DNA from: Tubulanus polymorphus
Taxonomy: Eukaryota; Animalia; Nemertea
DNA length: 64,000 bases
Assembly: GCF_964204645.1 (NCBI RefSeq)
Contig: NC_134025.1
Coordinates: 29,926,299 to 29,990,298 of the forward strand
Direction of reading: 5' to 3'
In this document: piece by piece, positions 3,466-40,493 of the stretch
How the letters are laid out: each line of letters opens with the position of its first letter
How positions within the stretch are numbered: the stretch's first letter is position 1
Program-made: the position numbers and the translations under genes
The notes under the pieces: generated by a model
Told to the model about the DNA's origin: nothing
Databases searched by the model: none
What the model saw: the letters and a program-made list of their open reading frames with translations, nothing else

Positions 3466-6400
3466 CTATCTTCTGCTCGAAGAAGGTTGTTTATCAGTGG
3501 ATGCCGAGTAACTGAAAATAACAATCACAATAGTTATAGTAACATTATTATAGATTCATCATGCTATGAATGAGTTAGAAGTATTTTCTCACCTGCCCAG
3601 TTGACCTCCAGCCATGCTGAAAAATTTATTGAAGTCCATACGTAGGAGTAACTGAGCTAAATGTGGACTCGATTGATGACTTTGAACACTGGACAATATC
3701 CGGAATAATAAACCAGATTGTACCTGAAAACTCTGTATGAAATAAAACAAATATCTCTCAGTAATGAGTTCACTTCATTCAGGTTGTAACACTACAGATG
3801 CTTGCAGTAGGCCTACCTTAGACAGTTCTTCTAATTTATTTGTTTCGGCTTCCTGACTCGGAGCTTCGCCTTGCATCAGAACGCAGAAATTGTTGCAAAT
3901 CTCTAGAATTTCTTTCAAGTAACGCGACACCTGCAAATACCGGTAAGAGAAAAGAATTTATTACGATTATTTCCAAGGGAAAAATACGAAGCTTCTTCGA
4001 AAAACTTACGGTTTTCATGTGTAGGAATGATTGAACTAATAACGCGGCCAGAAACTGATCGTGAGCCAATCTGATAGCTTCGAAGTCATGAGTAGCTTCG
4101 ATCTTACCGAGTAAAATACTGTACTGAGATTCAATCACATCAACCTACAATCAATTAAACAAACGTTCCTTTTACCAAACAAATTCTACATTCTCGCTAT
4201 AGATATCAAAACGAACGATTATTCGATGAATATAGAACTGATACCTGTAGATAGTACTGCAGATTATCGAGAAGGTAAGCCATATGATATCGTAGCAACC
4301 ATTTCAATCTCGCTTGTTCTTCGTTTAGACTTTGTTTATTTTGCATCTGCTCCGCCCAACAATTCTGCAACCTCAACTGAACGCGTTTCAGCGTCAGCAA
4401 AAACCGGAATAATTTATTATACCTACGAAACGAGAAATAGTTTAATGAGAGGAACGTCATCTGAAAAGGAGTTTTAAAGTGGAATGATTTGAATACAGTA
4501 CTTGTCTAATGTTGAGTTTGTGAAGAGTAAATGTAACGGCCATTCTACAGTACACGTTAGACCTAATGCACTCCATCCGTTGATGACTGAGTCTGTGCGA
4601 GATGGCTCTAAAATAACAAACATTCAAAACTTTTAATTTCTTTAACAGTTAGCTCAGCTCGGAATCCTGTACACTCGATGACATTCCAAACACTACAGGC
4701 CCAGAGGTAGGTTTTGGGGGCGTTCTCATGGATCCAGACCCTGCCTTCGCACTGAGGTGCCGTTTTTGCCAAGCCAGAGATAGCTAAAACCTATAAATTT
4801 CACACTCATCCTGTCAGAATTTGCATCTTTTAGATGTATTTCATCAAAACTATATTAACACCGAGGGTGGGACCCCCACTAGTGGCTTTTGCCATGGCTG
4901 CATTATCCAAGAAATGCCATTTCTTTCCTTCTGTACTCTGGCCTTCCGATTATTTTCCTAGATCCGCCATGAGACCCCGCTGTAACTTCAAATCTAAGAC
5001 AAAACAGTTGAAAAAAAATTGCATTATTTTCATTCTTACTTTTGGAAAGGATTTTATTAGAGTTGATTGTCAGCTGAAAAGCTTGAAACAACTGATCATC
5101 TTCTACTTGTAAAACCATGCGTGCGGCTTGGTGGAACGCGAAATTTACATCTATCAAAATAGACAATGAAATTATACAGTGAAAATCAGGTTTTATAACC
5201 GCTTAAAGCTCAACGATTCATACCCATTCTTACCGTGTTGTGTGTTAGCATTCGGAGGATGATTAAGAAGTTGTCTTTCGTTGCACGTATCGATAAACGC
5301 TAGGAATAATTCACCGCGACCGAGTAAATACATATCCTTCATCACTTGTAAATGTGTATATAAATGATTCTCTTCAAGAACCATGTGCCACAGACGCTAG
5401 AAATATAAACAACACAACATAATCATTGATAAAACACGATATCCCTGTTGTGATGCAAATCCCGCTAAAACAGCAAAATATATTACCGTATTATTACAAT
5501 TATTACTGTATCTATTAAGTCATGTAGCCTACATTTATATTTGAATCTATGTCCTTTAATTATTCAGTCTGTAAAAATGTTCTTCACGTGAATTTTTGTA
5601 TTTTTGTATTCTTATCTTTCCTCTTATAGTCTGTACTTTTTGTACGAAATAAAGACTTATGATTATTATTTATTATAAATTCTGAAAATTTTTCTTTTCT
5701 TTTAGTTTTGACTATATTTTAATAGTCATCTTAAAGGAAACATTGTCGGAATTCATATCATACATAGACAATAATCAACCGATGATTGAGTCAGTAGAGG
5801 GGGAAAAGTGTTCACAGAACAGGGGGTCAGGAGATAAGGGGCCAGAAAAACTGCTGTCAGGAGGACAGGGAACAGAACTGAAAAGTTTTCGTTACCTCTG
5901 CAACACACATTCGTACTTTGCCGACGACTTCTTCGAAATTCTGAAGATCAAATTCTCGATGTTTCGAAAGATTGTAAATTTCTTTGGCAAATTTTTCTTC
6001 ATTTTCTCTCAAAACAGAATCTAAACAGAGAAATCAGTGATAGAGAGAAAATGTTGACTTCATAAAATCCAATTGTTAATTCATTGGTCTTACTGTAATG
6101 CATGAAACTTGTTATTTCATGTTTCTGCTCAAACATTTGAACCGATTCGCCGACAAATAATATTTTCTCTCCGAGACTCAGAGGTATATACGACGGGAAC
6201 ATGTCGCTACGGATACTGAATTCTTCTCTTTTATTCGGAATCGACGGTTCATACATCGAACTTTGCTAAAATGAAAGAAAAAGAAAAACATCACACATGT
6301 TGGAACTGTGAATCAGTAAGATCGCAATAACCATGATGGAGAACAATACATGTCAAATCCCACAATTGTTGAAAAAGTATATCTAAAATACTGGAAATAT

Positions 6401-8152: not shown

Positions 8153-9999
8153 CCTGTCAGTGAGTGGTGAGAGGGTTTTCACCGCCTAATAATATTAGTA
8201 AGAAAACCGCCGCAAATTTGTATTTGTTTCATTTCATTGAATTGAATTGAATTGAATATGAGTCATTCTGCAGAATTTCCAGAACCTGCTCTCAGAGGTG
8301 AGCTGGCCTCTCAGGGCAGAAACCTACCCTCAGGGGCCGCGGTCAATAAAAACTAAAAATCCATTCACCAGATTGAGCTGAAACGGTGGAAAGTCAAGAT
8401 AATAGGGAAAATCTAAACAAACAAAAGTTTAATCCGCAATGCCCACGTTTATTATCAACAACTATTCAAGAATATATAAGAATATAGAATCAGAATTGGT
8501 ATTTTACTGAAAGAAATTAAAAAATAAAACTACTTTTCATCAATATAAAGAAATGAAAAAAATAAAAATTTATTTCGGAGAGAAAGTGGCGCGTGGATGA
8601 TAGTTTTACGGTTCTCACCTGCTTAATCCAGCGGCTGACACGAATACGATTTTTGCTAAAGGCCACAGTCACCCGTAAGTACCAGAATAAACAAAATGGC
8701 GGCTTTTTGAATGGCTTAACGTGATTCAGAACGACACAGGTGACATTAGTTAGTTACCTAATCGTTGGTGGTAAGCTTTTATAATCGGATGGGCTTATAC
8801 CAACGTTAGGGATGACAAGGACCAAAACACGGTTGAAAAAAGTAACACTTCAAAAATATACTTTCTATTCACTTCAGTCCACAATTAATGGCTTAATTCA
8901 CAAACTAACACAGGTACCTTTCGAAATAATCCAATTTTATGTATGTTTCGAGTGATTAATCAACATTATTTTGAGAAATTAATTAATTTCTCCACAAATT
9001 TCGCCATTGGCCGCCATTTCTCTGTATTGCACATGTGGCATGATAAGACAAGGGGACCTACAAGGATTTATATAAAACTTCCAAGACGAAACGACAATTT
9101 TTATTTTTGATGGTTTTCCAACTTTTATTTCAAGTCTTCGTGTTTTCCATAATAAATAATAAAATAATAAATTTCTGGTAAAAGAAAAATGTGAATAAGT
9201 GTTGATTTTTTAATTTTTTTAAATTTCGTCGTTTCGCTTTGTTAGTTTGTGCTGTTGTCCTGGCCTCAGTCCACAGGTGCCAGCACCTCCAGTAATTTTC
9301 AAAATGGCAGCTGTTGACTGGACGGAAATTTACTCTCACTTTACGGCCGATTTGCACATGGATTAAGATCGTCAGGTGAGGTGTTATAGGTATCAGACAA
9401 ACTACGAATCTGTTGTGCGTCGATTACAACAAAAATGAGACAGATATCTTAAGAGACAATGAAATGCCAGGCAAATTACTCGTCAGTCAAATTGGCTGAC
9501 GAAGATTTCATACAAAAATGACCTTCCCATTCCTGACTGTGGTTTGTGAAAATATCCGATCGTGAAACTAAACCACAGACAGGTTACTGACTAAGGTGAC
9601 ATCTAACATCCGCGTTGCTGGCTTGCAGCTAATAACTAGGAAGTAAGTGTAAATATAACTTTATCGAAAGAGGTGACGACATTTAAATCGAACTCCTTAA
9701 AATATGAAACCCCATCAAGTTTACATCCGAAATCCCTCCCTGACCCTGTGTAAGTAAGTAATGAAATTTCTGGCCTATTTGTAGCCTAAATGAAGTGAAG
9801 GCACCGAAACTGACTTACGCTGGGCCACCTGTGAAACTCAAATCAAGCCAAATAGACATTAGTTTATATCGTATGTCTACATACGATATAAGTTTGTTTG
9901 TTTAGTTTGTGCCAGTTTGTTTGTGTCATTCAACTGCTTGACAGTGGTTCCGTCTAGCAGCAGCTGTGGAGTGCGAGTGTCCAATATTCGACTAAAAAG
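8153..9999. promoter_or_regulatory. Divergent intergenic/promoter region between TUBGCP4 and the Macro-TIR gene
   Basis: The ATGs at 8152 (-) and 10000 (+) are head-to-head. YY1-like motifs occur as CAAAATGGCGGC (~8692), GGCCGCCATTT (~9009) and CAAAATGGCAGC (~9300). Part of the region is a dispersed repeat. Confidence 0.5.
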
Positions 10000-12900
10000 A
10001 TGGCTGCAGGATTATATCGAGCATCATCAATTGATTTAGTCACCGATGAAGGACATCATGAGATTCAGTTATTACTTGGTGATATTACATTATTGCCCCC
10101 TGAAGATAAAGTCGATCTTCTTATGATTTCCGCTTTTCCTGGTAATAATAAATACACCGTTAATTGACCGACCCGGGACTGAATTCATCGGTGCTATGAA
10201 ACTATCGTTATATTTCAGGTGATTATTGCGCCACTCCGACGTCTGTGATTGGTGCGTTAAAACGCTCGTTTGGAATCAACGTGCGCGATTTAGCGCGAGA
10301 TAAAGCTGAAGATTTGAGAAGGAATTTCAATTGTTGGTTCTCTCATCCACTTCCAGATGGTTTGCCCTACAAGTAATTACACTTCATAATCAAAAACATT
10401 ATCGTGTTAGCGACAATTGATCAATGACCAACCCTGTATCCCTGTATGATAATGAGAAATCTTTCATTGTTGGTCCTTAATACTGGTTTTATCCACCATC
10501 AATTGTGACAAGTCCCTGTTGTGTTGTCTACTGTATTCTTGATTCCTTCTGATTTGCTTGATTTTAAACATTTTCAGACGACTTTTATGTTTTGAGCAAC
10601 AAGTGCGTGATTTCAGCCACCCGAGTATGTTAATAGGAGATGTTTTTCGATGTATGATTCCAGCATTCAACAATCAACCGAGTTCCGTTATAACTCCTAT
10701 TCTCGCGTCTGGCGATCAGGTGGGTCGATTTATCCACATCATATCAAATTCATTCATATTCTACATTGTATACAACTTGCACGCAAAATTTCATTTCGAT
10801 AGTTTTCATACTAATCTGGGACCCAGTTCCACAGTTATTCTCCCACGTTCACAAAAAAGTTCTCAATTTTTGGTTTAGACACTGTTTAAATACTTATGTT
10901 TTCACTCTTTTGGGACATTGGACTTCTGGACCCAGTTTCAAAAAAGGTTGATTTAATTTCTCCAATCATTAAATCTGCATCTCAATTTCATTCAGGAGTT
11001 AATCATATCTGGGCATTTGTATATCCTTACTCAAAACTGTTTCAGGGTCATGTACGGTATGGGATGTATCTAGTTTGTTGTAATTATTTTCCAGAACTGT
11101 GATATAAATGTGATGTTGACATCGATGGTAGTTGCAGCGTGTAACTGGATCACTGCTGGATTACCTCTCGTTTGTCTCAAGATAGTTGTTTTCACGAGAG
11201 AACAATTCACCTGTGAATCGGATATCAAATCATCTTATCTCAATGGTCTCATCGATGTTTTCAATAAACAGAAATTGAAATGGGAGTCTCGAAAAACTAA
11301 ATGGAAGGTTAGTGCGAAATTTCACTCCAGTTTTACGTAATGACTTGAGAGTCAAAATCAATAATAAAAATATTGATTATTAACCCAAAGCCATGTGTAC
11401 CATTTATTGTGTGAATTGTGGGGATCATCACTTTTTGAAAGTGATAAAATGTCCGGTGTTTGTAGTTACGTTTCACTCGAAAATGTCTTTGGAAAGGTTC
11501 TAAACACATGTGAAATGTGAATGATAAAGAATTGGAAGATTGATGCCAGAAGTTGTCTAAATAAGTTGGATCCAGGCTACAGATACCTACACAATTTAGC
11601 ATACAGTCTCAATGGGTAACATGTTTGTCTTTATTTCACTGACAGGAGGTTTCTATACAGTACGATGTATTCCTGTCCTACAGTCGCGAAGATCAGGATT
11701 ACGTAGAAATGATACGAAAACAATTATTACTTGAAAAACCGGGACTTCGTATCAATACAGAAAAACATGAACTGGACTTAGAACAAGCTTGGCAACAGGA
11801 GATCTATGATACTATGATTGTCTGTCTCAGGTAACTGTCATCGCCTGTCTCGGATATCTATTCTGGTTTACTGTTGAACAGTACTGCCAACCAACCAACC
11901 ATCCCTTATTTCTAGAGACATTCTCTTCTGAATAATGATCTGTTGTTCCTCCTTGATTATGGCAAACTCCATGGAATTGAAAATGAATCGGTGTCCCTTC
12001 AAGTTTTAAGAATTTGGTCCATTGTCTTTCTTATTGGCTTATCTTGTCCCAGTCCCAGGAATTCATGAGTTGCGGGCAGTAAGACCGGCAAGAGACACTT
12101 GGGCTCATCCACTCTGTACAGAGTGACAACCTTCAGGCTGTGGACAACGACATTATGTCTAACCATGTTTCTTTGAAAATAATTCAATCAATAATAAAAA
12201 TAACAGGATATTGATAATGAATATTTTCAGAGTGATAACCATATTGAGCCCGAGTTATTTACAGTGCTCCAGTTGTTTAGATGAATACAATATGGCTTTA
12301 TGCTGTAATCGAGTTGTAGAACGCCATGTTTTAGCTCCTGTTTATCTAAAACAAGTTCAAGTGATGCCGACATACATGCTCGTTACTCAATATATAGATT
12401 TCAGGTATTTTATCCGTTGATGTTGTGTTTATCATTTGTTTTTAGAGTTCTGCCCGTTTTAACGCAGAATTACCTGACATCATTAGAATGTGTCGAAGAG
12501 TATAATATCGCACTGTGTTGTAATCGAGTGTCATCGCGTGATATTTTAGCACCGTTCCTTTTGAAAACGATACCTCAATTACCCGTTTATATGCAACTGA
12601 TTCAATATCTGGACTGTAGGTAAAGTTTTATAGCTGTTATGCACTTTGGGGCCATCCATGAAATACATAGCTCAAAATGACAATTTCTAAACCCCCGCTC
12701 TATAATGCAATTTTAAGCATCACAGTATGTTCAAAGGGAGAAGTGGCTGACTGTTTACCCCTTCACCCCATGTATGCATGCTTGTATTATGAATGGTCCC
12801 TTTCAAAATCTGTTTGTACATAATGATAATGCACAGAAAAATTTCTATACTAAACCTGGGTTAGATTTCTTTTTGTTATTCAAATATATTTCTCAGGATC

Positions 12901-15428
12901 ACTATGACTACCTGATAAAAGAGATATTTCTATTTTCAAACTCGACAGGATTGATGATGGAAGTTTCGATAAGCTGATAACCGGCTGTAGAACGTTTGTG
13001 AAATCCGAGTTGAGCGCAGGAATAAAGCACGCGACCGCCGCACGTAAACAAACGGATTACGACGTTTTCATTTCATATTGTCATAAAAACACGAATAAAG
13101 TCGCGTTGTTTCTGGAAACGCTGCAGAAATTGAAACCAGATTTGAAGATTTTCTTCGACCGAAATGAGCTGAAAACAGGTATTGATCGTTTGCGGTAGAT
13201 TAAGATGATTTCTGTGGAACCGGGTCCTGAAGAGCAGCTCATTGATTGTTTATTATATTCTATAGGAGCTTCGTGGCAGCAGATATTGTACGGTGCTATA
13301 GAATCCAGTGACGTAGTTTTAGTTATGCTCACTCCTGATTACATGAATTCAAGTGTTTGCTGTGAAGAGTACAATCTAGCGCTCGCCTGCCACACGTCAT
13401 CTGTAAGTACCATTTCTCGCCCTCTTCATGCAGAGATATTATTTACTTTCCCCTCGGCATCCGCAACCACAGGTATCATTTAACAACAGACTGATTTTAA
13501 CTCTTGGGTCAAACTCATCTGTGGAACTGTGTCCTGTATTATAGTATTTTGTTTTGTAGGCAGTAGATGTGAATTTAGTTCCCGTATTGATAGAAGATGT
13601 AGATGAGTCATTGCAGCGAGGTTATTCCTACGTTCCTGTCGTGGATGGCCGAAATACGCATCAAATCGCTTCAATAGTCTGTCAGAAAATCATCAATTTC
13701 TTGGACAACGGAGAAATCGATCCGAATATCTTCCAGACTAATAAGGTACTGCAGAATGAGTTTCAGTGCTATCTAACTGTGGATTCTTATACCATCAATA
13801 TGTTGAGGACTTACTGAAATGATGATTTACACTTTATAGGGAATCTAAATGGAAGTAAAATTTGGGACTCAAAGATAGAGCATACAACTTATGGCTTATC
13901 GAGTTGAAATAATATTTTGAATTCTTGAAATATTTTCAGACCAAGCATCATCTCGACTGGCTGATGGCTAAGAATCGTAATTCATATTTCCGAGAAAATT
14001 TTACTCGTAAAGCCGGAAAATTCATTAAAAAACCAGTTGAACGCGAGACGACTGCGGATGTGGAAACGACGCATGAGAATCGGTGTGATATATTCATCAG
14101 CGTTAATGATTCGGACAAGATTTACGCGTCCTGTCTTCGCAAGATTCTTAAGTTTAAATCGGACGAACTGGAGATTCATTTCGATACGGAATCCGAGGCG
14201 AGTCAGTTGTCGAAACTGGAACGAGCGAAAATCATCGTCGCCGTCGTGTCTCCGGCGTATTTCACTTCGAAACGCGAACAACAAGAGTTTCATAGCGCCC
14301 TCTGTAGACATCGCGCTGAAATAGGTAAACAGGTTCTCTATGTGATACAGATGTCGCAGTTGTTGGATAAACCGAGTTACGCTCATCTGATTCCGTGTGA
14401 TATCGCGTGTTATGATTCGATTTGGAAGGATTTGTCGTGGGTTGCCAATCAGAACGGCGTCACTCCATTTACCGAAGCAGCTGATAAAGTGTGGTATCAG
14501 TTTAAATGTGACGAACAGATGAATATGAAGATTTTCACTGCTCTCGACGCGGCCTCAGAGGTTATTATAGAACTACTCACAACTTCGAGGTATGTTTTAA
14601 TGTTTTAGATGCTTTCCTCAAATTCAATGCATTCACTGCCATCATAATAATAGTGCTGCCCCTGTTGCTACTATGAGTTATCAGGAACAGTGTCACTTCT
14701 GTATGCCAGAGTACAAATGACTAACAGCGAATAAAAATCATTAGCAACGGGCAAACTCGATATCTCGGTAGTTGGCAGTAATGGTGTTACACGGTATTTG
14801 AAATTGATATCAGTGTAAATATATTATAGATCAGAAGAGAAGAACATGATTATCAGGAATATTATAGCTATGGACATGAAAGTCGACCCCAAAGAACGAA
14901 TTCCAATCCCCGATGGGGTGAGTAGAGGCAACCTCAAATGCTTGGGTTTCTTTAATAAAGAGACAGTTTGTATCGTTTCATGTGATGTTTATTTCACAGT
15001 TCATAAGAACAATTACGACGAAGACTGAAACTGGTGATGAACATGTTGAGAAAACTGATGTGATGGATTTCAGATCGGAGAAAGTTCATGTTCTTGATTT
15101 TCCTGAAGAGTCCACTGGTGCTACTGAGACCGATGAGTGTACAAACACTGCGCAGCTGAAGGAGCCTACAAACGCTGCACTACTAGAGGAGCCGAAAGAT
15201 GGTGCACAACTGAAGGAGCCTACTGAAACTGCACAACCAAAGGAGTTTGAAGACTCGTCACAACCAGATACATCTACAAATACTGGTGAATCCGAACAGC
15301 TGAAAGATAGTGAATCAAATCAAATAGTCGATGATGCTCGTACTACTAGTGTTAACAATCAAATATCATCTAATGGTACAAATGATGAGGTGAAATATGG
15401 ACGAAGTCGTAGTTGTTCATTGTTATAA
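10000..15428 (+). CDS. Macro-like domain + three TIR (TIR_2-type) domains + acidic repeat linker + C-terminal CaaX; ~909 aa when one of the two alternative exons is used
   Basis: Phase-consistent GT-AG exons: 10000-10141, 10219-10372, 10578-10719, 11095-11307, 11646-11830, [12231-12404 or 12446-12619], 12949-13178, 13266-13402, 13560-13745, 13940-14589, 14830-14917, 15000-15428 (2730 nt total). The N-terminus (IQLLLGDIT..KVDLLMISAFPGDY..TPTSVIGAL...VITPILASGDQ...LKIVVF) fits a Macro-type fold. TIR box-1 motifs are YDVFLSYS, YDVFISYC and CDIFISVN, with alphaC glutamates in CLDEY/CVEEY, CCEEY and QQEF. The protein ends KYGRSRSCSLL*. Confidence 0.85.
12231..12404 (+). CDS. Alternative exon 6A of the Macro-TIR gene (C-terminal half of TIR1)
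   Basis: ttttcag|AGTG...TTCAG|gtattt, 174 nt, phase 2-2. Encodes VITILSPSYLQCSSCLDEYNMALCCNRVVERHVLAPVYLKQVQVMPTYMLVTQYIDFR. Confidence 0.8.
12446..12619 (+). CDS. Alternative exon 6B of the Macro-TIR gene (paralogous C-terminal half of TIR1)
   Basis: ttttttag|AGTT...TGTAG|gtaaag, 174 nt, phase 2-2. Encodes VLPVLTQNYLTSLECVEEYNIALCCNRVSSRDILAPFLLKTIPQLPVYMQLIQYLDCR. Confidence 0.8.
12647..12801. mobile_element. Degenerate MITE (GGGGCCATCCAT...ATGAATGGTCCC termini)
   Basis: Imperfect terminal inverted repeats, similar in style to the outer element at 2108-2514. Confidence 0.45.
15147..15254 (+). repeat. Coding 27-bp (9-aa) tandem repeat x4 in the acidic linker of the Macro-TIR protein
   Basis: Units read TAQLKEPTN / AALLEEPKD / GAQLKEPTE / TAQPKEFED. 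Confidence 0.8.
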
Positions 15429-15464
15429 TACCATCCAACGTACTTACCTATGTATTATTCAGGT

Positions 15465-15656
15465 ATTGACAAGTTACTTAGGTATTTGCTTGGCCGAGTG
15501 AGATTGCCAAATTTAATCAGTCACTCGGCCGAGTAAAGAACTTAACTTTTACTAAGCTGGGCTGAGTGGGTTGTCGAATACAAACTATCACTCGGCCGAG
15601 TAAACAACTTTCTAGTATAATGCTCGGCCGAGCAAATGCCTAAGTAACTTGTCAAT
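15465..15656. mobile_element. MITE with 34-bp TIRs and internal CTCGGCCGAG palindromes, just 3' of the Macro-TIR stop codon
   Basis: ATTGACAAGTTACTTAGGTATTTGCTTGGCCGAG pairs with CTCGGCCGAGCAAATGCCTAAGTAACTTGTCAAT (2 mismatches). Confidence 0.8.
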
Positions 15657-20946: not shown

Positions 20947-23900
20947 TTACACATTGTAAACCCAGTGTCTACCATACCTAGGATCTTGCGATGGTCCAGC
21001 TTGCATCGTTTTACCACGGAGCAGTGCATCTATTCCAGGTGGGGTAGCTTCCGCATCGCAGCTGTTACTTCTTGGAACTTGCCCACTTTGCCATCGCGGG
21101 GGTGTACAGCTAGTAGGTGATCCTCTATAGTCTATATTATACTGTAACAAAATAAACGAGAAAATAATTTAACAGTAGCTCACAGCCGAGAGTGAAGATA
21201 AACTCTCTACAGCGGTCAGACTGATAAACATAAACTCTGGAATTTCAAATTTTTCACATCCTTTTAATTGGCTTATTTCACATTTTCTCACAACAAAATA
21301 CCAGAATTTTTCAGTTTTTGAAATAACGTTTCCAGATTTTCACATCATGCATTGAGTTTCTAGGACTGAGTTCTAGACTGTGAAACTTGAGTAGTGCAAA
21401 GTGATTTACCTTAGTGGCGCAAATAAAGCAAGTTGTGACAACTTTAGCGACAGCATTCATTAGATTTTTGGTTTCCTGTATTGCACTGTCAACTTTATTA
21501 AAAGTAGCTGTTTTACCGAATGTAGGAGACTTCAGTGTGAAGTGTAAATGCTGACAATAAGCCGGAATTTTATCCAAATACGTGATCAATTCAGTTTTCA
21601 GTCCACCAACCGGAACCTAAAGATGAAAAATATAGCTTCAATCAAACATATCATATAAATACTGAACCACAACTGTATAGTCAAATCTATTCTTAAGCAG
21701 TGAATGCGCAGAGATGACTTGGCCTGGGTCAAACTGGTCCGGATCAGACCAGAGTCAAATTTTACTCAAATTTCATAATAGAGCACGTTTACATGTAAAT
21801 CACTCGCGTGATACTGAAATATTATCAAAATGATGCTGTGGCAAGCGAGGAGAGTCACTTCAAGAACCAGTTAGCATTCAAGGGCAATGACTCGTGCTAA
21901 AATTTGGCATGGACCAGGTCCAACGTTTTTGGTCAGACACAGAGACCCAATCGGCACCAGTGTAAACGATTGGTCCGGGTCCAAAACATTCATTTGATGG
22001 CAGCTTTCGTTCTTCAGTTTACTGGTTTTTTCGGGGTGTTGTGATTCTTACCCTTTGACCAAATTCTTTGACTATTTTGAATAATTTATTTCCCTCCTCG
22101 GCGAAATATTCGGCCTGAGTGAATAAATCCTGCGTAGTTCTCAGCGGACCTTCACCTCTAGTGAACAGGTACATCGAGAACGCCATACTCGACATATTCT
22201 TGGCACGTTTTACGATGTCGTTATCCGGCTCTTCCCATTTCTCGGTTTCCGCATCCATTTCTGATGTGATCAATTTCATTTCCAGACCGAGTTTAGCTAT
22301 TTTCGCTTGTTCCTGAAATATTCATCGAAAAATTACTACATTTCTTATCTCAAAAGTGAGCTACCTGTAAGTATTCAATACACTAGCAATGAAGGGATGG
22401 ATAATCCGTGTTTGATTTGAATTAAGGCAACGAGTTTTGCCTTAGAGTGACTCGAGTTGGTTCTAACATTCATACACTTTAGGTTCCACAAATAAAAAAC
22501 ATTTTACGGGATAAGAAATACATCTAATAGCAAAAAATATTTTTATTTTCGGTAAAAAAAATTCAAATAAAAGTCGTATATTAGCAAAAATTATCAATGA
22601 GTTCGAAATAATTCAAACTAAACTTCAATTGGAAACGGAATTCAACCTGCATTTCATCATTTCAACGAGAAGTACATTTATAAATGGTCAACTTAACTGA
22701 CATGAAATTAAAAGGAGATTTGGACGATAATCAAGAAGAAATGAGCAATGAAAGAAACTGATAGATAAATTTTAATATTCATAACCTAATTAACATACCA
22801 TTTACATACAATATAGGAATATCTATAGTAACAGAGAAACAATATACATCAAAATTACCCAATCAACAGTGACTGTATCGTTAAAACTAGCCTGTCAAAA
22901 ACAATCAACTAAAATGCGTCAATAACTATTCATTTCCCGCAATAAAAACTGCAAATACTAGAAAGTTAAACACCGTGAGTTTAGTGTAAATCAGTTGTTT
23001 TTTCTAACTAATGACAGCTACGAACATAAATAATACTCTAAGTCTCAATGAAACGTGTGATTGAAATATTGTAGATAAAAATATAATCTATTTCACCAGT
23101 GACTCCTTCGAAGTTCAACTTAAAACGTTAAATTAAGGAATAGGAAATATTTGAAAAGAACTGAAGATTAATCTAAACAACAACGAATCTGGTTATTTAC
23201 CCATTCAGCTAATGGTCCTTTAGTCTGAAAATCATCATCGATATGTTTCATTAATAGCTAATACACTCAACATGCTGGGCACCGGTATGTCGGGTTAGTA
23301 ATTAGATAATGATCAGTTCAGATGAATAGCTATCAAACTATCGAGGATCCCTTCTCATCTTGTCTTTCCTCTCCCTCTCCACCCTCACTTTCTCTTATTG
23401 AGTCTTACCTCTGAATCGAGATGTCCCGGTCTGATCGATTTCGTAGTCGTACCATGTTTCTATAAAACACAGAACAAACTATTTGAGCGCACACAGTAAC
23501 TGATTAGATGACTTCGAAGTTCTGATAAAACTGAAGAATTGCATGAGCAAAAAGTATGATTCAATTTGAAATATTGAGGAGAATTATAAGAGAGAGTTGT
23601 GTGTGTGTGGAGTGCGCGGATTGAGACAGAAATAGATGATGGGTGATGGATGCAGCCGGGAACACACATCAAACAGCGGGTGAATTTTGGTCGGTTGTTT
23701 TCAGGTGGATTGAACAACATTAGAACTGAGATAAACCGGGGTACCTCTCCATGACGCACGAGCGAGCGCCAGATAAAAACACACACACGACACACACCAT
23801 CCATCACTCATATCTATAAAACTCATCTCCTCACAGAGTCTCGAATAAACCTTCACGTTTCAATAGACAAGTCACTGTCTGTTTTTGAATCGAAGCAAAA

Positions 23901-26900
23901 TCCATGGCCCAGTTTTATATACCTTTTCAGTTGATACCAGTTTCAAAGCCAGGTCAAGGATTAAAAGAAAACTATGAGAGTAGAATGGTGTTTCGACTCA
24001 AATACTACAAGCCATTTTCAGAACTCATAGGATTTGAGTTGAGACTTTTTATTGATTCTGGGTTTTCCTTCAATTCAAACGTATACCTGTTTAATCATAC
24101 CGTTATAGAGCGAGGTCAATAGAGGTCATAGAAAGGTCATAGAGAGGTACGTTTTCATACATACATGTATTATAAACAAAATACTATTACTTACTGTAAT
24201 CTGCACGATTTGTAGTTAAAAATAAAACATAAAATTCACTAATTCCGAAAAGCGATGAACATAAAAAGGGTAGGTTTACTATAGTGAGGATTTAGCCATT
24301 CATGACGGGATAAATCGTGAACTGGTTTCGAGATGAATTTATTCGTTTAATCAACTGAAATGTGACGACGAATGAGAAGTAGAAGAATACTTACGCCCGG
24401 TCTCGGTAAAGACATGTAAATCTGTCGATCATTTTTCCCGGATAGAACGTCGTTGATATCCTTGACTAGAACGGAAAGATCATTGATCTGCGATTCCCAA
24501 CTGTCGCAGAAAACGTCTAAATTCTCTCGGGCTATTTTACTACTGTTGTATCGAGCTAGAGTCTTCCCTGCATAAATCAACTGAAAATACATACATACAA
24601 CATATAGGCTACCATAATAGTAAAACAACATTTGTCAAATCAGTAAACATGAAGATTGGTAGTACTTCAAAGTGGAGCGGCCTGGCCGAGTGGTTAGGGC
24701 GTTCGGCTCTGGGAAGCCAGGTCGTGGGTTCGAATCCCGTACATTGCCGTAGTGTCCTCGGGCAAGACACTTATCCTCATTGCCTCTCTCCACCCGGTAG
24801 TAAATGGATACCTGTGACTCCTGAGCGCTTGTTAGCAGCTCGGTGTTACTTCTCCCCAGGGAGAGATGACTGATACATGTTAGAGTATAAAATTGGCCGG
24901 GGTAATAATACCGAAAATGTAAAGCGCTCTGAGCAGCCTCGCTGGATTTAGCGCTATATAAGACACATATTATTATTATTATTATTATCATTATTCAAAG
25001 GTTTACTTGATTTTGTCCACTAAGTACTGCCAGTTTTCACCTTTTCTAGTTTGACACCAGGTTAACAAGTTCTTTTATTTGTCTGATATAGATGGTCAAG
25101 ATTCTTACCTGGGGACATAATGATTTAATACAGTTTTCAACGTGTTCAGCAGTTATCACTAGTGGGTCAAGGCTACAGATATGTCGTAATAATTTACAAA
25201 CCTGTAATCACAAATTAAACACATATAAGTCATGAGCAGTTAAAGAAACTTAAATAGTTTATGCAGTTCCATGTAGTTCATTTTCGATGTTTTAACTCAA
25301 GATCAAAATCCTAACTGCAGAAGTGGACTAGTTCTATTGGTCTACTAGTTACCAGGCTTGCTGTTTCTATGTATGAGCTCTGCACCTAATTTCACCAACA
25401 ATTCTCTTAATCATTACATTTTTGAACTTACTTCCTGAAGTTGTTCCGAATGTTCTTCAATTTTCACTGATAATTCACAAACTTGTTCGTAATCTCCGTT
25501 TAAACCGGCACTTTTTAAAGCCATCAACAAATCATGATCTTCGCTTGTTTTAAACAGTTCCGACGCTTGATCCATAGCTGTATCTTGTAACTAGAATCAA
25601 ATTCAATAAATCAGTGAAATGTTTCACACTTACTGAGAATGAAAACTTAAGTCTGAAAAGTTTAGTGGCTTACTCTATGCACTACATCCTTATAGTCATC
25701 TATTAGGATAAAGTCAAAACATAGAATAGACCATTAGCTCAATGAATCTTTAAAGACTTTTTTCATTCTCAGTTAATCTCATCCTGGATCAATAATTCAC
25801 CTGTTTTTTCAAAAGTTTCGACAATTCGCAAGTTTTCAGAATGGCTGTTTCTAATTCCTGACTTGGAGACACAGCATCTGACTGATCCTATAGAAAAAAT
25901 GGACAAATTTCATACATCGCAGCTTTACTTGTGTAGTGCATGTAAATAAGGGTTTATACAGATCAGGGAATTGTGAATCGATGATTAGCTGTGACCCTTG
26001 ACCAAAAATCCCCTGATTCAATTTTGAGATATCCCCAGTGGGGGTAGTTTCTTCTGATTGGCACCACCAATCACCAGCAAGAACAACAAGACACCAAACA
26101 TTCAAATTTCCGAATTTTGCAAGAAAAAGAATCAGAATTCCTTGATTTTCATTGCAGTGATAAATAAATCTGGACTTGAGTGATAGTCGCTGATTTCCCC
26201 GATCTGTAAGAACCCTGGTTAATGTATGCATTGTACGTACTAATAATATTCCTATTTTCACTACTAGTGATTGTTCATGTCTGAGTTTCTCACACAATTC
26301 TACAATACGTTCTCGATGCTCGTGAGTTGTATACGCTGAATCGGTAAAATCTTGAGTCGCTTCGATCAGATTTTCTAGCGCTATCGCGAGTTTACTCTGC
26401 GTTGTAGGTCCGACTAACGTTACCCTCGTCATTTCAACCAAATCCTGCGCAAAAACAATCACAATTTATCAATTCATGTTTCTTTTAGATTCCTGGTTTA
26501 TGTTGCCGTACAGTTATTAACTAGTATAAAGGCCGAGTTTGACTATAAAAGGTCAGACATGGCAGTATCTGTGAACTCATGGTGCAGTCAGGAGCTCCAG
26601 CGTTTGAAACTGGTTTTTCTTTATCATCTCCGTCAGTTTCTCAGGATAGGGTAACGGAGGAGGTGCAAAGTAACATAACTGCTAGGGCAGAAAGATGATT
26701 TTACACGTCCGAGCCGGCGCAGTTGCTAAAAGTTTGGTTTTAAGTTCACCTGCGTGAACCACAGTTTTAATTGTCACCAAGTCAGTTATTAATTGGTGAA
26801 CCGTCACCAACAATTGAGCAACTATGAACAAAAGCAGTCTGTGGCTGTGGTGTATTTATTCATCGGTTAATCAATCACTAGTGTTGACTATCACTAGTTC

Positions 26901-29900
26901 ATAATTAATGAATTATTGTAATGAAATCCTCGATCAATGAATATAAACAATAGACTCTTGTTACGTACATCGAACTCCTTCATACACCGATAAGCAGTAG
27001 GTTGAGAATGAGCGAGACCGATTCCTGAATCACCGTTCACAGCTGTAGGTGTCGGCGATGCGTCCGTATTTACCGGACCGGTATCTGATACAATATGCTG
27101 TATCAGATCCATAGCGTATCGCATCTGACTGAATACGCCGTCTCGACTCTTCTTAGCCGTATCACAATCGGGATGTCGTAAACTTGTCTGAAATCAACAA
27201 CGCAATGAGAATAATGAGAAACCAGGACGAAAGTGGAGCGATGTTGAGAGCAGGACCTTGAGAGACAGAGGCCGGTCGCGCAGTCCCGGTCTCATTACAA
27301 AAATGGTCTAAATCAAAATCGTGCCTGATCTAAACCCAGAACTGTGGAACTGAGGAGATCGGTTCCAATAAAACAACTTACTTTACAAGTTGTCAGAAGC
27401 ATCATTGTTCCCTTCTCTAATACAGTTCTCGCCACCCCCATCTGCGATCTTTGTTTGTCACTTTTTAAATCCTGTAATTCGTTAACGAAATATGATCAGT
27501 AACTGAAAGTTTCAATTAGATAACAGCACACACAGTTAGAATGACAAACTTCACTCACATTTTGTCTATCTCCGGTAAGATGAGCCAATTCGACCATCTC
27601 GTTACCAAACTGACTAAATGCCTTCACAAAATCCTGAAATCCTGTTACGGTTTCTATAATTCCTAAACTAACGGCCACCTGAAAATTACAAGATTTAATA
27701 CAGTTTTATGGAAAAAACCACAATTATGAAGTAAAAAGCAAAAGAGGATTTTGAAGGTTTTCAGAGCTATTTTCAAAACAGAGAAAATAAATAGCACTGA
27801 ACATGGTAGTCACTTTCGGCCAATTCACAATCCGCTGAGTTTTCCCTGAATGTTCGTTGTTTTAACACAAAATTCCCTGAGTAAATCCGAGGAATTTCTT
27901 TGCATGAAATGTTACAATTGATTCATTTTTTCATGAATCATATAGGCCCCTATTGATTAAGAAAAGGATGGACAATAACATATCCAAATTCCCTGTATTT
28001 TCCAGGTTTTCTTAGAAAAATTTGTCAAATTCCCCGAGTTAAATTATAAGGAAGCCAGAGTTATAATTAGGATTAATTCTATGAAACGCTAGTTCTAAAT
28101 AGTAAATCATCGGTACCTTATCTTTAGCCGCTAACAGTTGTTTAACTACGACTTTATCAGCGAGTAGAAGCACCTTGGTAATAGCGGATAATAACTGTCT
28201 AGCGGCTCGAACCATCGCCGTTTTCTCCGCGCCTTTCACCTGACCGGTCTCGTCTAGTTTCACGTCTGTTAGTTTCTGTATATTTTCGCCGCTGATTCTC
28301 GCTTCCTTGCACGCGTCGCACATGTCGTTACGTATTTCCACATTCTCCTCGGCGATCGATTCTCCGACCGTTACGAATCGAGATATCGCCAGATTCACCG
28401 CCTGCCCGACCCGAACCAGCGCTTTCAAAGTTTTCTCCGATTTGATCGGTCGATCTCTCGCGTTCACTAAAGTCGTTATCTACGAAGAGAATTATAAAAC
28501 ATGTTTTAGCGAAAACGATTAAAATATATAGAACATTAGCATATAGCATTCACACGCAATAACTCCACCGGAGCTTAAATTTGGCTCTAGCCTGGTCCAA
28601 TGTTCTTGATCACCCAAATTTAATCCATATCAAACCCATAACCACCGATTAGAAACTTTGTCGCGGGCCTAATCTGGCACCGCTGGGCAATTCAGCCCAG
28701 GTCAAAAATGCTCGTGTGATCGAGACAGCCTCGGATTATCATGCGTCCCGGCTGACAAAATACATGCACATGATGACGGGCGACCCTTCAACTGTAGCAG
28801 CTTTCACTCGCTAAATTGGTGCCACAACATCAGAAGCGAGCGAAGACAACTCTAACATATCATTTTCTATAAATACATGTGCTATTAAAGAAGCAGAAAC
28901 TGCTTCATTAGATTTATATCGATTTGACGAGTTATTTTTGTTTTTCCTTTTCTCGAAATAGAACTCAGCGTGAATGTGATTGTCACAGGGGAAGTTTATA
29001 TACCTTCAGGGCGAACGCTGATCCAAATAGATTCATTTCAACGCGGATCAATAATTCAAGCATGTACCGTGTATATATATCAATAATTAACACAAGTGCA
29101 AATATTGGATCAATCGTCGAACACGCTGCGACCAGGGGGGTTGACTTTCAGAGAATACCGAACTGTAACTGGAAGAGAGGGTTCGCAGTTAGAAGAATCT
29201 GTCGAAACTCAAGAGAACACTGTCGCTGTATCTCCGGAGATGGTGTCACATGAATATACATTAATACGGATCTCCGATAAACCTTCTGCTCCGATACCCC
29301 TCACCAGCCGATTGCAAAAATGTCACTAGATCGAGTTCCAATTACATTTAGAATAGGTCGATTTCAAGCGCGTCGACCCGAGCTGGATAAGGTTTGATCG
29401 CGGAACAGGGTGTAGACAGGACGACAACAACTATCATGAACTTTAATGAATCGATTGTGTAAATAGAGAAGATCATTTCCTGTGAGTTGTGAGAGACAGG
29501 AAATAAACAGAGATAGACCTGATACAGGTGTCAATCCAATCAATCAGTCAATATTCACTTTATAGCCAGCCAACCAAATACTGCTTGATCTCAACAAAAA
29601 ACAAGAAAACTTACTCGAAAGATTATCGACACCTTGAAGAAAAATAACACATATATTGCCTAATACTATCGACAATGAATAATATTACAAAACATTAAGG
29701 ACCAATTAAGTTATTTTGAATCTGAATAGGCCTATATCGATAATTTGAATCTAGTTGACCGGTACCGATCTAACAACGCGAGCCCCAATATTGATGACAT
29801 AGTGCACATCCACTCAAAATTCATTATCAAAACGACAGCAATCTATCTAACAGAAAATGAGGCATGAAATATATCTAATTGCAGAATGAAAACCAAAATT

Positions 29901-35641: not shown

Positions 35642-36034
35642 TCAATTGTTATTATCACTACTCGGACTGCTAGAGATATTTCCGGGCGGGTGTTCTTCAA
35701 AACCTTCACTCTCCGTAATCAAAGCCCGTTCCAAAATAACGCGTCCCTCTTTGTAACGTTGATTTTCTTCGGTAGCGAACTCGTAAATCCAACCGAGTTT
35801 CGCGTCGCAACTTTTACACAACACGTCGCGCACCATGTGACGTCCGGTGAGCATTACGCGATCCTGAACCTCGCTGTAGTTTAAATTAACGACTCTATTG
35901 AACAGAAACGCTCGTCCGGTCGCCCCAGTGAATCGTGTTGAGATCAATTCCGACCGGTTCGTCAACGGAGTGTCACAACTAGCGCACGAGAATAATCGCG
36001 ATCCTCCGATATGGTTCAAGAATATTCGACCCAT
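35642..36034 (-). CDS. YPEL5: Protein yippee-like 5 (130 aa, CDS in a single exon)
   Basis: [105 protein letters not shown] has two CxxC motifs. A 5' UTR intron acceptor (ttttcag) lies 11 nt upstream of the ATG. Confidence 0.97.
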
Positions 36035-36469
36035 ATTTGGTGGTGCTGAAAAGGAGGATAACATAGATGGAGAAAATTAAAGAAAAGTTGAAGAATTTTG
36101 ATTGACAGAGAATCCAGGATAGGTAAATTTAGATGTGTTCAGTTGTGTTACCTTATAAAAGTTGGCAACAGCAGCACCAAACAGAATTTCACAAAATAAC
36201 CACTGACAGCCAATCCTATACTTGTCTTCAATATTCTGCGGAGTAATGTGGAAATAAAATCAGTTGAATTTAGCTTGATTGACCTCTTTCATTCTCGTCA
36301 AAATCAAAACATTGCAGATAAACGCATCATTCACATTAATGAAACAGTTTTATGAAATGAAGAGTAATTCTACATTTAGATATATAAGATATCGATGTTT
36401 TAAAATAGAGATATCGGTTCTAGAATGTTAAGTTTGATCGCAATAAGAATTTATCCGAGGATTGTTTAC

Positions 36470-36905
36470 TCACAAATGACGTTTGTTGATCAAAACATTG
36501 ATGACGTCACACGTGCACGTGTTCCTGTCAAAGTTCATCAGTCACTGCGCATGCGTGTATTTTACCTGACACGAAGAATCATCTCACAAGGTGGCGCTAG
36601 TATCGCAATATTGCGCTTTATAAAAATGCTGTAAATTCTAATGTTGTTTCACATCTAAAGTTAATATTTCTAGTTCTTTTATTTTAGTTTGTATAATTTT
36701 GTGTTAGTTCTTTTAATCATCACACGACGGCGCTAGTATCGGTAGTTGTAGTTCCGCCAATGTTCGCACAGTGGCGCTAGTATCGCGGGGCCGAGTTCCG
36801 GTTTCTGACGAAGAGTTTGATCGCCGGATTAGCAATTTTCTCGTCGCTTAAAAATCGTTGAGAACTGACGTCAAACAGTGAAATAAACGTTTAAACGTCG
36901 GAACA
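36470..36905. promoter_or_regulatory. Bidirectional YPEL5/EHD promoter
   Basis: CRE TGACGTCA at ~36502 and ~36866, E-boxes CACGTG at ~36510-36521, NRF1-like TGCGCATGCG at ~36546, three GGCGCTAGTATCG motifs (36593, 36729, 36773) and an ETS-like TTCCGG at ~36796. Confidence 0.7.
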
Positions 36906-39900
36906 ATGTTTTCGTGGATTAAATCCGAGGGTAAGAAAGAACCGGAGGTTTATGAGAATGTCGTCGGAGGTTTGGCAAAGCTGTATAAAACTCGACTCCT
37001 CCCTTTGGAAGAGTATTACAGATTCCACGATTTTCACTCCCCTGTTCTCGATGACCCTGATTTTTCGGCGAAACCGATGATTTTACTGGTCGGTCAATAT
37101 TCCACCGGTAAAACTACGTTCATCCGATATTTACTGGAGAGCGATTTCCCGGGAATTCGAATCGGTCCGGAACCGACGACCGATCGATTCATCGCGGTGA
37201 TGCACAACGACACGGAAGGCGTCGTCCCGGGCAACGCATTGGTCGTCGATCCGAAGAAACAATTCAAACCGTTAGAATCGTTCGGAAACGCTTTCCTCAA
37301 TCGGTTCCAATGTTCCCAGCTACCGAACGCCGTTCTGGAGAGCATCTCGATTATCGATACTCCGGGAATTCTCTCCGGAGAGAAACATCGCATCGATCGC
37401 GGCTATAATTTCACCGGCGTTCTCGAATGGTTCGCTGAACGAGTCGATCGTATCGTTCTCTTATTCGACGCCCATAAACTCGATATTTCCGACGAGTTTC
37501 GACGAAGTATCGAAGCGTTGAAAGGTTACGACGATAAAATACGTATCGTTTTAAACAAAGCGGACGGGATCGATCATCAGCAGTTAATGAGGGTTTACGG
37601 AGCGTTGATGTGGTCGCTCGGGAAGGTGCTCAATACGCCCGAGGTCTGTCGCGTTTATATCGGCTCGTTCTGGGATCAACCGTTGATCTACGATTCCAAC
37701 CGGAAACTGTTCGAATTAGAAGAACACGATTTATTCCATGACCTGCAGAGTTTACCGAGCAACGCGGCTCTTCGCAAATTGAACGATTTGATCAAAAGAG
37801 CGAGATTAGCAAAGGTAAAAGAATTTCACGAGTGATTACGTGTCTAAACCATTGTCATTCCGCAGTGGAACCTCGTCAGAACAAACTTCAGAACACTGTT
37901 AGTTTTTGATCTTAAAATAGGGATTGACCCTGTGATTTATTTGATTGGTAAATTTCGTTTGATTTTTTGATTTGGTGTCCCTTACAAACCCACCACACCT
38001 GCCGGGAAAGAAACAGGGGGTTTGATTTTGAAATCGGAAATCGAAGTACAAATATAGTTGTGTGATCGGCGGTCGAGTTTACAGAATTTTTTGTTTAAAT
38101 CGAAGTACATAATTTGAAATTTTCGGTTCCGGTTCATTCAAACAATCATCCAAGCAGTCTGAACCGGCAAGCGACTGATTGGGGTTAATTTAGTTGGCTG
38201 CCTAATTTAATACATCAAGATTTAGGAAATAACTATATTACAAGGTTGAAGATCATTTTGTCAATTTTTAACATTTTTTTGGTCGTTTTCCACGTGTACA
38301 CTGTTAGTTTTAACTGATAGTTCACTGTTGTTATTTCTAGTCAGATTGATTTAATCTTTAAACTTGGGATGAGAAATTCTTAGGTCTATCTTTATATTCA
38401 TGGATTCTGGTTTGTTGTAACCCAAGGTTCCACTGTAAAACTTATAAGCGGCTCAATGGTTACTAAGGCAAAACTATGATTCAAAATCTCCATTTCTTTT
38501 GGACTTTTATATTTACTGTAAAATAAAATTGAATCTGTTGAATTTGGATTTATAAAAAGAATATATATTCTATACATGTAGTTGGAAACTGGATGATCTA
38601 AGCTACAGTTCACCCCCAAACTTCAAATACGAGCCCCTGTGTCCAGCTGTAGAACAATGTGAAATATGATGTTAAATCTGGATTTCATTGTTGGCTTGGG
38701 ATAAAATTCAAAACCAGTTCTTTCAAAGATATATTTGATAGTATTTTATTACGTCATCATATCATACTGTCATGAATCTCCTCTGACTGGATAAATTCTG
38801 ATACCAGTATATGGTACTCCCATATCCTATACTGTGGTAACAGGTGTTTTATTGGCTGCCGTATAAACGCTAATATTTGTTATTACACTATAATCAGACA
38901 GTGTTGAATATTGAATATTGTAACAGATTTCCGGAGACCCAAATTCACCAAAACCATACACAGTAATTATGTATGAAATGCTCGTATAATGATATAGCTC
39001 TTATGTACCTTCCCTATATTGAGTTGATAGTTTAATTGAGCGTGATTATTACTAAGAAGATATTTAATGATAAGATTGTGTATGTTAGGGGTATAACTCA
39101 CCTGAGTCGATCAAATACAGCGTAATTTGATAATCATAAAATCAATATGATAGATTATATCTATTAGTTAGAATCATTGGATAGGCTATACAAGTTCTAC
39201 GTTACTGTTCATTCCAATTTCTGATTCAAGAATAGCTTATTTGATGTTGGGGCTAAATTTCTAAGCCCTGAAACCGATATTTCATTGAAGTCCCTGGCTG
39301 AGTTTTCCAGAGGTGCCCATGAGTGGATCGAGGGTGTTCCAGAACTGTTCCTGTATTTCTCAGTGTGGCTGGCTAATACAGTCTAGATCTGACACTGACC
39401 CCTAAGACTATCGAGCCACTGATGAAGTTTTCTTTACATCGCGTATGTGATGTTACTTGTGTAGTAATTACCTCAATCAGTCCTATACTCATTATTTCTA
39501 TTTCTCTTTTTAAGGTACACGCATACATCATCAGCGCGTTGAGGAAGGAAATGCCAACGATGTTTGGTAAAGACAATAAAAAGAGAGAACTGATTAAAAA
39601 TCTTGATCAAATCTACTCTTCGATACAACGCGAACATAATATATCATTAGGTATAATAATATTTATACAGTTTTACTTGTACTCGAATATCTATAGGATA
39701 TTACTTATTGTCCAGATTTTTAATTCATTTTCAAAAAGGGCAGTATGACAAAAAATAAGGGGTAAAAGAAGACAATTTTTTATGTTTTTGGAGGGGTGTT
39801 TTTGCTATGAAGTCACTGTCAGAATACCCTTTAGCTTAGTTTGCTCTAAACATATTTGTTAAGATCCTCAGATGTTGTTCCTTCGTGTAATCTGTATTAA

Positions 39901-40493
39901 ATTGTTCATTTTATATACATTTAACAGGAGATTTCCCGGAGAAGAAGAAAATGCAGGAACTATTGGAACATCATGACTTCACGAAGTTCCACGCGTTGAA
40001 ACCGAAGCTGATCGAAGCCGTCGATAAGATGTTGTGCGACGATATTTCACGTTTGATGGCGATGATTCCGCAAGAAGAACGAGCGAGTATCGACATCGTG
40101 AATACGGTTAAAGGGGGCGCTTTCGAAAACTACGATGAGACACCGTTCGGAATCGGTAATCTCGAGGGAATCAACGCCGGTCAGGGCGAGAGCGAATGGA
40201 TCTGCGCGCGGAAACGAGATAAAACGGATCGCGTGTTCGACACGTTGGATCCGATCGACGGCAAGATCAGCGGCGCGAAGGCCAAACGAGAAATGATGAA
40301 TTCGAGATTACCGAACAATACATTGGCTCGTATCTGGAAGCTATCCGATATAGACCGGGATGGAATGTTAGACGCCGATGAATGGGCGTTGGCTAGTCAT
40401 CTTATCGAAATGAAATTAAACGACCAAATAGAAATACCTAGCGTGTTACCGCAACATTTAATACCACCATCCAAACGAGAATTCCTCGATTAA
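36906..40493 (+). CDS. EHD1: EH domain-containing ATPase (EHD1/EHD3/RME-1/Past1 family), 3 exons, 536 aa
   Basis: Exons 36906-37814, 39515-39650 and 39928-40493 (1611 nt, phases consistent). Motifs include the P-loop GQYSTGKT, PEPTTD, DTPGILSG, NKAD and KPES-type KPF loop region (KKQFKPL), plus a C-terminal EH domain (IWKLSDIDRDGMLDADEWALA..LIPPSKR). Confidence 0.96.
37900..38022 (+). repeat. Dispersed repeat shared with 49437-49650 (member of an abundant family with CCCAGTTCCACAG / CTGTGGAACTGGG ends)
   Basis: TCTTAAAATAGGGA.TTG.CCCT...TTTGGTGTCC.TTACAA...CCACACCTGCCGGGAA.GAAACA.GGGG occurs at both sites. The terminal motif also occurs at ~598-615, ~10818, ~13212, ~18495, ~27340 and ~46525. 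Confidence 0.75.

Follow-up and report, generated by a model that had tools for sequence, protein, structure and literature searches.

An old tandem exon pair in the first TIR domain of a macro-TIR protein of the nemertean Tubulanus polymorphus, with one copy seen in spliced RNA

The gene LOC141905942 (RefSeq) of the palaeonemertean Tubulanus polymorphus, which encodes a protein with a macro fold and three TIR domains (macro + 3xTIR), carries two adjacent copies of the exon for betaC to betaE of its first TIR domain (TIR1). These copies, here exons A and B (6A and 6B), arose long ago by tandem duplication of a single TIR1 exon. The interpretation we favour, with moderate confidence, is that they form a mutually exclusive pair in which B is the spliced form and A a minor alternative restricted to particular tissues or conditions.

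Host gene and exon structure

We analysed a window of 64,000 nt of T. polymorphus DNA, to which all coordinates refer, together with assembled contigs from three runs; X2 was recognised as spliced by its joints, and runs X1 and X3 showed no joints. One X2 contig (2823 nt, depth 80.4) has 11 GT..AG joints, which set the span of the gene at 9946 to 15467, and, translated, it gives the 909-residue protein that RefSeq lists for LOC141905942. The features of the gene are as follows:

10000..10141, + strand: coding exon 1, macro-fold domain, start codon at 10000 (RNA joint, translation, fold match)
10219..10372, + strand: exon 2, macro-fold domain (RNA contig joints)
10578..10719, + strand: exon 3, macro-fold domain (RNA contig joints)
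11095..11307, + strand: exon 4, end of the macro-fold domain and linker (RNA contig joints)
11646..11830, + strand: exon 5, first half of TIR1 from betaA to the start of betaC, with box 1 and BB loop (TIR_2 positions 1-47, E 4.4e-7; model; joint)
12231..12404, + strand: exon 6A, intact duplicate for TIR1 betaC-betaE (TIR_2 positions 54-108; none seen spliced)
12405..12445, + strand: spacer of 41 nt with the A donor, a weak branch-point candidate at spacer position 16 and the B acceptor; likely too short for excision
12446..12619, + strand: exon 6B, TIR1 betaC-betaE, the form in RNA and RefSeq (joints 11830-12446 and 12619-12949, run X2)
12949..13178, + strand: exon 7, TIR1 alphaE, linker and first half of TIR2 (RNA joints, model)
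13266..13402, + strand: exon 8, TIR2 alphaB-alphaC with the family-conserved Glu448 (RNA joints, family alignment)
13560..13745, + strand: exon 9, end of TIR2 (RNA joints, model)
13940..14589, + strand: exon 10, TIR3 (RNA joints, Pfam)
14830..14917, + strand: exon 11 (RNA contig joints)
15000..15428, + strand: last coding exon, low-confidence acidic tail with a CaaX-like end (translation; pLDDT < 50 for residues 781-909)

The predicted structure (mean pLDDT 81.6) consists of an N-terminal macro fold, three TIR domains and a low-confidence acidic tail. Pfam gave no macro match for the N-terminal domain, although its macro alpha/beta fold was matched by structure: PARP9 macro 2 (9qyf_A) aligned over 183 residues with a Z of 15.7 and an rmsd of 3.0, and many other macro domains match as well. 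The acidic tail includes a 27-nt tandem repeat of 3.9 copies (15140-15245), and the last exon shows 12 differences between the RNA contig and the window. A CaaX-like motif lies at the C-terminus of the protein (15414-15428), and Cys stands at -4 in 46 of 76 family rows; from these features we presume that the family is lipid-anchored.

Upstream of the gene, at about 9440-9600, lies a high-copy repeat with a summed contig depth of about 100,000 in run X1. The neighbouring genes are those for a gamma-tubulin complex component (3836-4505), a vinculin-family protein (22019-28479), a single-exon Yippee (35642-36076), an EH-domain protein (36882-40493) and a dynein heavy chain (43646-64000); no immune gene cluster was found near the TIR gene among these neighbours in the window.

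Exons A and B are tandem duplicates

Each of the two exons is 174 nt long, in phase 2-2 and free of stops, with AG before it and GT after it, and both are read in the same frame. Aligned without gaps, their translations agree at 27 of 57 whole codons, to which a junction Arg common to both is added, giving the 28 of 58 identities that a sequence-only reading of this DNA had reported along with the lengths, phases and splice sites; recomputation returned the same values throughout. In 100,000 shuffles the number of identities never exceeded 14. At the nucleotide level 96 of 174 positions are identical (55%), and identities at codon positions 1, 2 and 3 number 35, 40 and 18 of 57, respectively. 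Positions 54-108 of Pfam TIR_2 are matched by A and by B, and positions 1-47 by the upstream exon 5; in the structural model the duplicated exon corresponds to residues 279-337, comprising the second part of betaC, alphaC, betaD, alphaD and betaE, and the next exon supplies alphaE. When all six frames of the window were searched with a family HMM, the A/B segment alone was matched twice, and no second duplicated exon was found in LOC141905942.

The pair is real DNA: both exons lie on a single contig of run X1, which is unspliced and matches 12087-15467 with 0 differences, and contigs of run X3, from another sample, contain both, covering A with 0 differences and also covering B. The intron stretch at 11981-12139 occurs in a second version with 10 differences in runs X1 and X2, which may be an allele or a dispersed repeat.

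Sequence constraint on both copies

Between A and B, pS is 0.93 (saturated) and pN 0.32 (dN 0.42), and the exons agree at 1 of 8 fourfold sites. Both exons keep all 6 columns that are invariant in 70 outgroups, and A equals B at 17 of 23 conserved columns versus 10 of 34 variable ones (p 0.0013). We scored the segments against a family profile built from these 70 outgroups (P0002-P0072 without the paralogue, 7 distant rows being left out) and obtained 112 for A, 124 for B and 118 for the paralogue; all three fall in the lower part of the leave-one-out range of 74-173, and A exceeds 6 and B 11 of the 70 leave-one-out scores, placing A somewhat lower than B. Exon A also departs slightly more from the family, at Val330, Thr331 and Val316, and the end branches in the exon tree measure 0.87 for A and 0.27 for B. 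Relative-rate counts showed no significant difference between the two exons against any of nine outgroups (lowest p 0.10).

Neutral decay was then simulated from B. At 0.05 substitutions per site, an open exon scoring like A was obtained in 7% of 2000 runs; at 0.1 substitutions per site the yield was at most 2 in 1000 runs, and at 0.2 or more there were none. Because the simulation excludes neutral decay beyond about 0.1 substitutions per site, selection has acted on A for all but a very recent part of its history at most. The earlier proposal of long-term selection on both exons is thus supported by pS of 0.93 versus pN of 0.32, with the retention of the invariant residues and with the lack of a rate excess in A. 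Judged by its sequence, exon A is not a decayed copy, and of the ways of silencing only a very recent one is compatible with these results.

Spliced forms and the short spacer

The X2 contig has joints 11830-12446 and 12619-12949, so that B is included and A is skipped, and the flanking junctions at 11830 and 12949 that had been predicted from the DNA are correct by these joints. Two X2 records lie on 11600-13250, and A is covered by neither. Assembled contigs drop rare variants and show presence, not absence; the gap over A in X2 counts nevertheless, because the contig joins across it. No joint 12404-12446, from A to B, was seen in the contigs of spliced run X2. RefSeq has two accessions for the same B protein, and the cluster at 90% has one member. 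No transcript or protein containing A, or A and B together, was found in this one spliced run, the contigs of which drop rare variants, or in RefSeq. Two TIR1 isoforms with a shared first half had been proposed; the shared half stands, with exon 5 carrying box 1 and the BB loop, and the B form is documented by the X2 joints and the RefSeq protein, but the A form was seen in neither source. The RNA and RefSeq data, with RNA from one contig run, speak against high use of A in the sampled tissues.

The length of the spacer was compared with that of introns in the window. The 11 RNA-supported introns of the TIR gene measure 77-615 nt. In the dynein neighbour, introns were mapped by a spliced aligner with three homologues, which gave 96 distinct calls; the 51 introns called by at least two of the three homologues range from 72 to 437 nt, with a median of 88 nt and 26 of the 51 at or below 90 nt. 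The other 45 calls, each from a single query, include 7 shorter than 70 nt (22-69 nt) in poorly aligned stretches. In an aligner control most true introns were recovered, but false introns of 52 and 60 nt and an A/B hybrid were also made, and since the control gave false short introns the 45 single-query calls were left out of the count. The earlier estimate of about 70-80 nt for the shortest introns of the window therefore agrees with floors of 72 nt (the 51 dynein introns) and 77 nt (the TIR gene); the spacer, at 41 nt, is far shorter than either. It contains one branch-point-like pentamer with its A at position 16, a weak motif that is present in 44 of 60 introns. Compared with 61 real sites in the window, the acceptor of A ranks at the 64th percentile and its donor at the 62nd, the acceptor of B at the 87th and its donor at the 36th.

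In human genes, exclusion has been ascribed to donor-to-branch-point distances below 50 nt, and exon clusters of C. elegans with spacers below 40 nt are described as behaving likewise (PMC5740500, PMC4165533). The suggestion that A and B are kept apart sterically agrees with the 41-nt spacer against a 72-nt floor and with the RNA contig, which joins 11830 to 12446. Joining of A to B is unlikely, and we infer the steric mechanism from the length of the spacer: it would be too short for the spliceosome to join A to B, and each mRNA would take one copy, with the stronger acceptor of B making B the default.

Other mechanisms of exclusion were considered. Frameshift followed by NMD was rejected, all four splice forms being in frame, and U12 incompatibility left no sign, the donors being ordinary GT sites. 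A stretch of exon B is complementary to the A donor (12385-12410 with 12468-12493) and is paired with it in the minimum-energy fold; silencing of the A donor by such a structure was rejected at z = -0.51, 60 of 200 shuffles having folded as well.

History and family

We retrieved 87 homologues at E <= 1e-10, among them about 70 full-length animal relatives, and the family has members in nemerteans, brachiopods, annelids, molluscs, echinoderms, hemichordates and cnidarians. Two matches, P0076 (metagenome) and P0080 (Mycobacterium assembly), cover 68-70% of a macro-TIR1-TIR2 query at 30-35% identity and are possible bacterial relatives. A paralogue, LOC141907613 (P0029/P0092), lies outside the window, and its annotated isoforms carry a B-type segment only.

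Comparison at the protein level with relatives shows the exon pair in T. polymorphus alone. Among 135 proteins, none has two matches to the segment at 55 bits or more, and none of the relatives retrieved carries the TIR1 segment twice or in an alternative version. Of 9 pairs of isoforms or cluster members, none differ by substitution of the segment, one Lingula pair differing by an 8-residue gap at its end, and a search for short gene calls resembling A or B returned no candidate.

In a tree of the segment (30 rows, 57 columns), B clusters with the paralogue (support 97/93) and A has no firm place; a clade of A and B is not rejected (AU p 0.30), nor is one of A, B and the paralogue (p 0.20). 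The remainder of the protein (18 rows) gives the two Tubulanus genes as sisters (SH-aLRT 100), with Lineus next (96), and the products of the two genes are about 54% identical. Three residues that are rare in outgroups, Glu297, Val307 and Lys319, are common to A and B. This pattern suggests, as far as sequence comparison goes, that the exon was duplicated in the Tubulanus line and that this duplication is older than that of the gene.

What the swap would change in TIR1

Identity between A and B is unevenly distributed along the domain: 4 of 14 residues in the betaC-alphaC' stretch, 11 of 14 in alphaC, 4 of 10 in the CD loop and betaD, 5 of 14 in the DD loop and alphaD, and 3 of 5 in betaE. Both exons encode Glu297 (codons 12283-12285 in A and 12498-12500 in B) at the C+3 position of alphaC; the catalytic Glu position was assigned from an HMM alignment of TIR2 to TLR TIRs and from the shared C-x-x-E pattern. 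TIR1A, TIR1B and TIR2 are in this respect like the NAD-cleaving TIRs of SARM1, plant TNL and bacterial AbTir, but unlike those they have no Trp at Glu-4, where Ser293 stands in A, Glu293 in B and Val444 in TIR2. The Trp of the WxxxE motif is absent from both exons, and it is not among the four commonest residues at its position in 67 relatives; this position has been tied to activity and to ADPR cyclisation (bioRxiv 10.1101/2022.05.07.491051). The sequence-only reading had placed its stress on a catalytic swap, with isoforms differing around the catalytic helix. That emphasis is not upheld: alphaC is the most similar part of the exon, Glu297 is in both copies, neither has the WxxxE Trp, and the differences sit instead in the flanking surfaces.

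Across 67 non-Tubulanus rows, the column of TIR1 Glu297 holds Gln in 54 and Glu in 3 (a whelk and two octopod rows), and TIR2 has Glu at the corresponding position in 66 of 67 relatives. In Tubulanus, Glu occupies the TIR1 position in A, B and the paralogue alike, which may be a gain of a catalytic-type residue specific to this lineage. From these alignments we infer that TIR1 serves chiefly for interactions in the macro + 3xTIR family, and TIR2 is likely to be a better candidate than TIR1 for the enzyme of the protein.

Surfaces used in TIR assembly include alphaC, alphaD, the CD loop, betaD and betaE (PMC11745336, bioRxiv 10.1101/2022.05.07.491051), and by analogy the swap would alter such surfaces. 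The two isoforms would be equal in length and would have the same alphaC core with Glu297; they would differ in the betaC-alphaC' stretch, the CD loop, the DD loop and alphaD, which are TIR-TIR contact surfaces in the domains used for comparison. The swap may in this way tune the choice of partner for TIR1, whether TIR2 or TIR3 of the same chain, another copy of the protein, or an adaptor. Searches with single exons against solved structures gave nothing useful.

Weighing the explanations

That the pair might be an artefact of assembly from two haplotypes, or a recent insertion from the paralogue, is an idea to which the grouping of B with the paralogue segment rather than with A lends something; it is nevertheless hardly credible, given that A and B share merely 55% of their nucleotides, that one contig contains both and a second sample has both, that at 80% likeness the three runs gave no further contig on either exon, and that identity between B and the paralogue protein is just 67%. 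We consider it equally far-fetched that A and B are spliced together into an in-frame protein of 968 residues with betaC-betaE twice. Such a form would stay in frame, 174 being divisible by three, and would escape NMD, and C. elegans does splice introns of close to 40 nt (PMC4165533); however, the RNA contig skips A, the floor for local introns is 72 nt, no such protein is in the RefSeq cluster, and the junction falls in the model inside strand betaC, where a duplicate would be expected to disturb the fold. A further scenario makes A a terminal or non-productive exon, yielding either a protein of macro domain and TIR1A that stops short of alphaE or a transcript whose degradation by NMD regulates gene dosage. 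Read-through of the A donor does meet a stop five codons on, at about 12418, and the last bases of the exon (12399-12404) score 9.5 as an acceptor, second best in 11860-12940; this acceptor-like site, if used, also runs into a stop within five codons. We regard this scenario as very unlikely, however: no AATAAA or ATTAAA occurs between 12405 and 12948, the truncated TIR would by the model be without alphaE, A has retained a good donor and its exact length, and its amino-acid conservation points to a folded product.

More weight is due to the possibility that A is a recently silenced relic, formerly a functional alternative or the original exon, although we consider this, too, rather unlikely. 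It would explain why no A transcript appears in the spliced run or in RefSeq; the slightly greater departure of A from the family (Val330, Thr331, Val316) and the B-type segment alone in the paralogue isoforms P0029 and P0092 agree with it, and decay of up to about 0.05 substitutions per site fits the data (7% of runs). The window for neutrality, below about 0.1 substitutions per site, is nonetheless small against the saturated divergence of A and B, which leaves room for silencing only in the very recent past. The two splice sites of A are moreover of normal strength, A is identical in the second sample (X3), and one RNA contig run is a thin sample from which rare variants are dropped. A mutually exclusive pair with B as the usual choice remains our preferred reading. 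An extension of it, in which both isoforms are made, TIR1 with its gained Glu is an active NAD-consuming domain, and the choice of exon (Ser versus Glu at the WxxxE Trp position, with filament-forming surfaces) switches product or assembly, strikes us as doubtful; if true, it would amount to a splice-controlled dial on an animal macro-TIR nucleotide-signalling protein.

Known systems and significance

The exchange of a TIR half by exon choice is already known from human IL1RAP, in which the alternative homologous exons 12 and 12b, 35% identical, replace the C-terminal part of the TIR domain (PMC9213720, PMC3705552) and the alphaC and alphaD regions decide signalling in IL-1RAcP and AcPb (PMC9213720). 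As in IL-1RAcP and IL-1RAcPb, a choice between homologous exons in Tubulanus would swap part of one TIR domain, and the TIR structure of AcPb (7fcc) is the best TIR match to modelled TIR1 (Z 15.4, rmsd 3.0, 135 aligned), tied with other TIRs. The systems differ in that the IL1RAP exons are alternative last exons of unequal length in a membrane co-receptor, both isoforms of which are proven, whereas the Tubulanus exons are an internal pair of equal length, 41 nt apart, in a cytosolic protein with a shared alphaE, of which one isoform has been seen.

The pair also resembles the mutually exclusive homologous exons described elsewhere in its equal lengths, phase, structural slot and short spacer (PMC5740500, PMC4165533, PMC8373072, PMC4494069); spacers below 50 nt occur in 9% of human clusters, and five C. 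elegans clusters all have exon lengths of 3n (PMC5740500, PMC4165533). That class by definition uses both exons, whereas in Tubulanus use of B has been seen so far, in one species. The main text of PMC8373072 contains no mention of TIR or IL1RAP. The macro + 3xTIR family is possibly ecTIR-DC 8 of Gerdol et al. 2017, by label alone, which is drawn as a 1,082-residue 'TIR TIR' protein in the supplement of PMC6321704; the family is not described in the available text of PMC9503650 and PMC6836662. Our literature searches, made on listings and the openings of abstracts, returned no paper on mutually exclusive exons in the family or on its function, and no paper with intron sizes for T. polymorphus.

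The Tubulanus case differs from these systems as an internal TIR exon pair of equal length, separated by a sterically short spacer, in a cytosolic protein of an invertebrate; the splicing mechanism is a familiar one, and the reach of the finding is limited to an observation in one species. If A is expressed, the gene would have a splice switch, so far missing from its annotation, within a TIR domain of an invertebrate macro + 3xTIR family that is widespread yet unstudied. This switch would be an independent parallel to vertebrate IL-1RAcP/AcPb. The two exons would then also constitute a natural half-domain pair, with the same scaffold and Glu and different surfaces, and could serve as a tool for questions of TIR partner choice.
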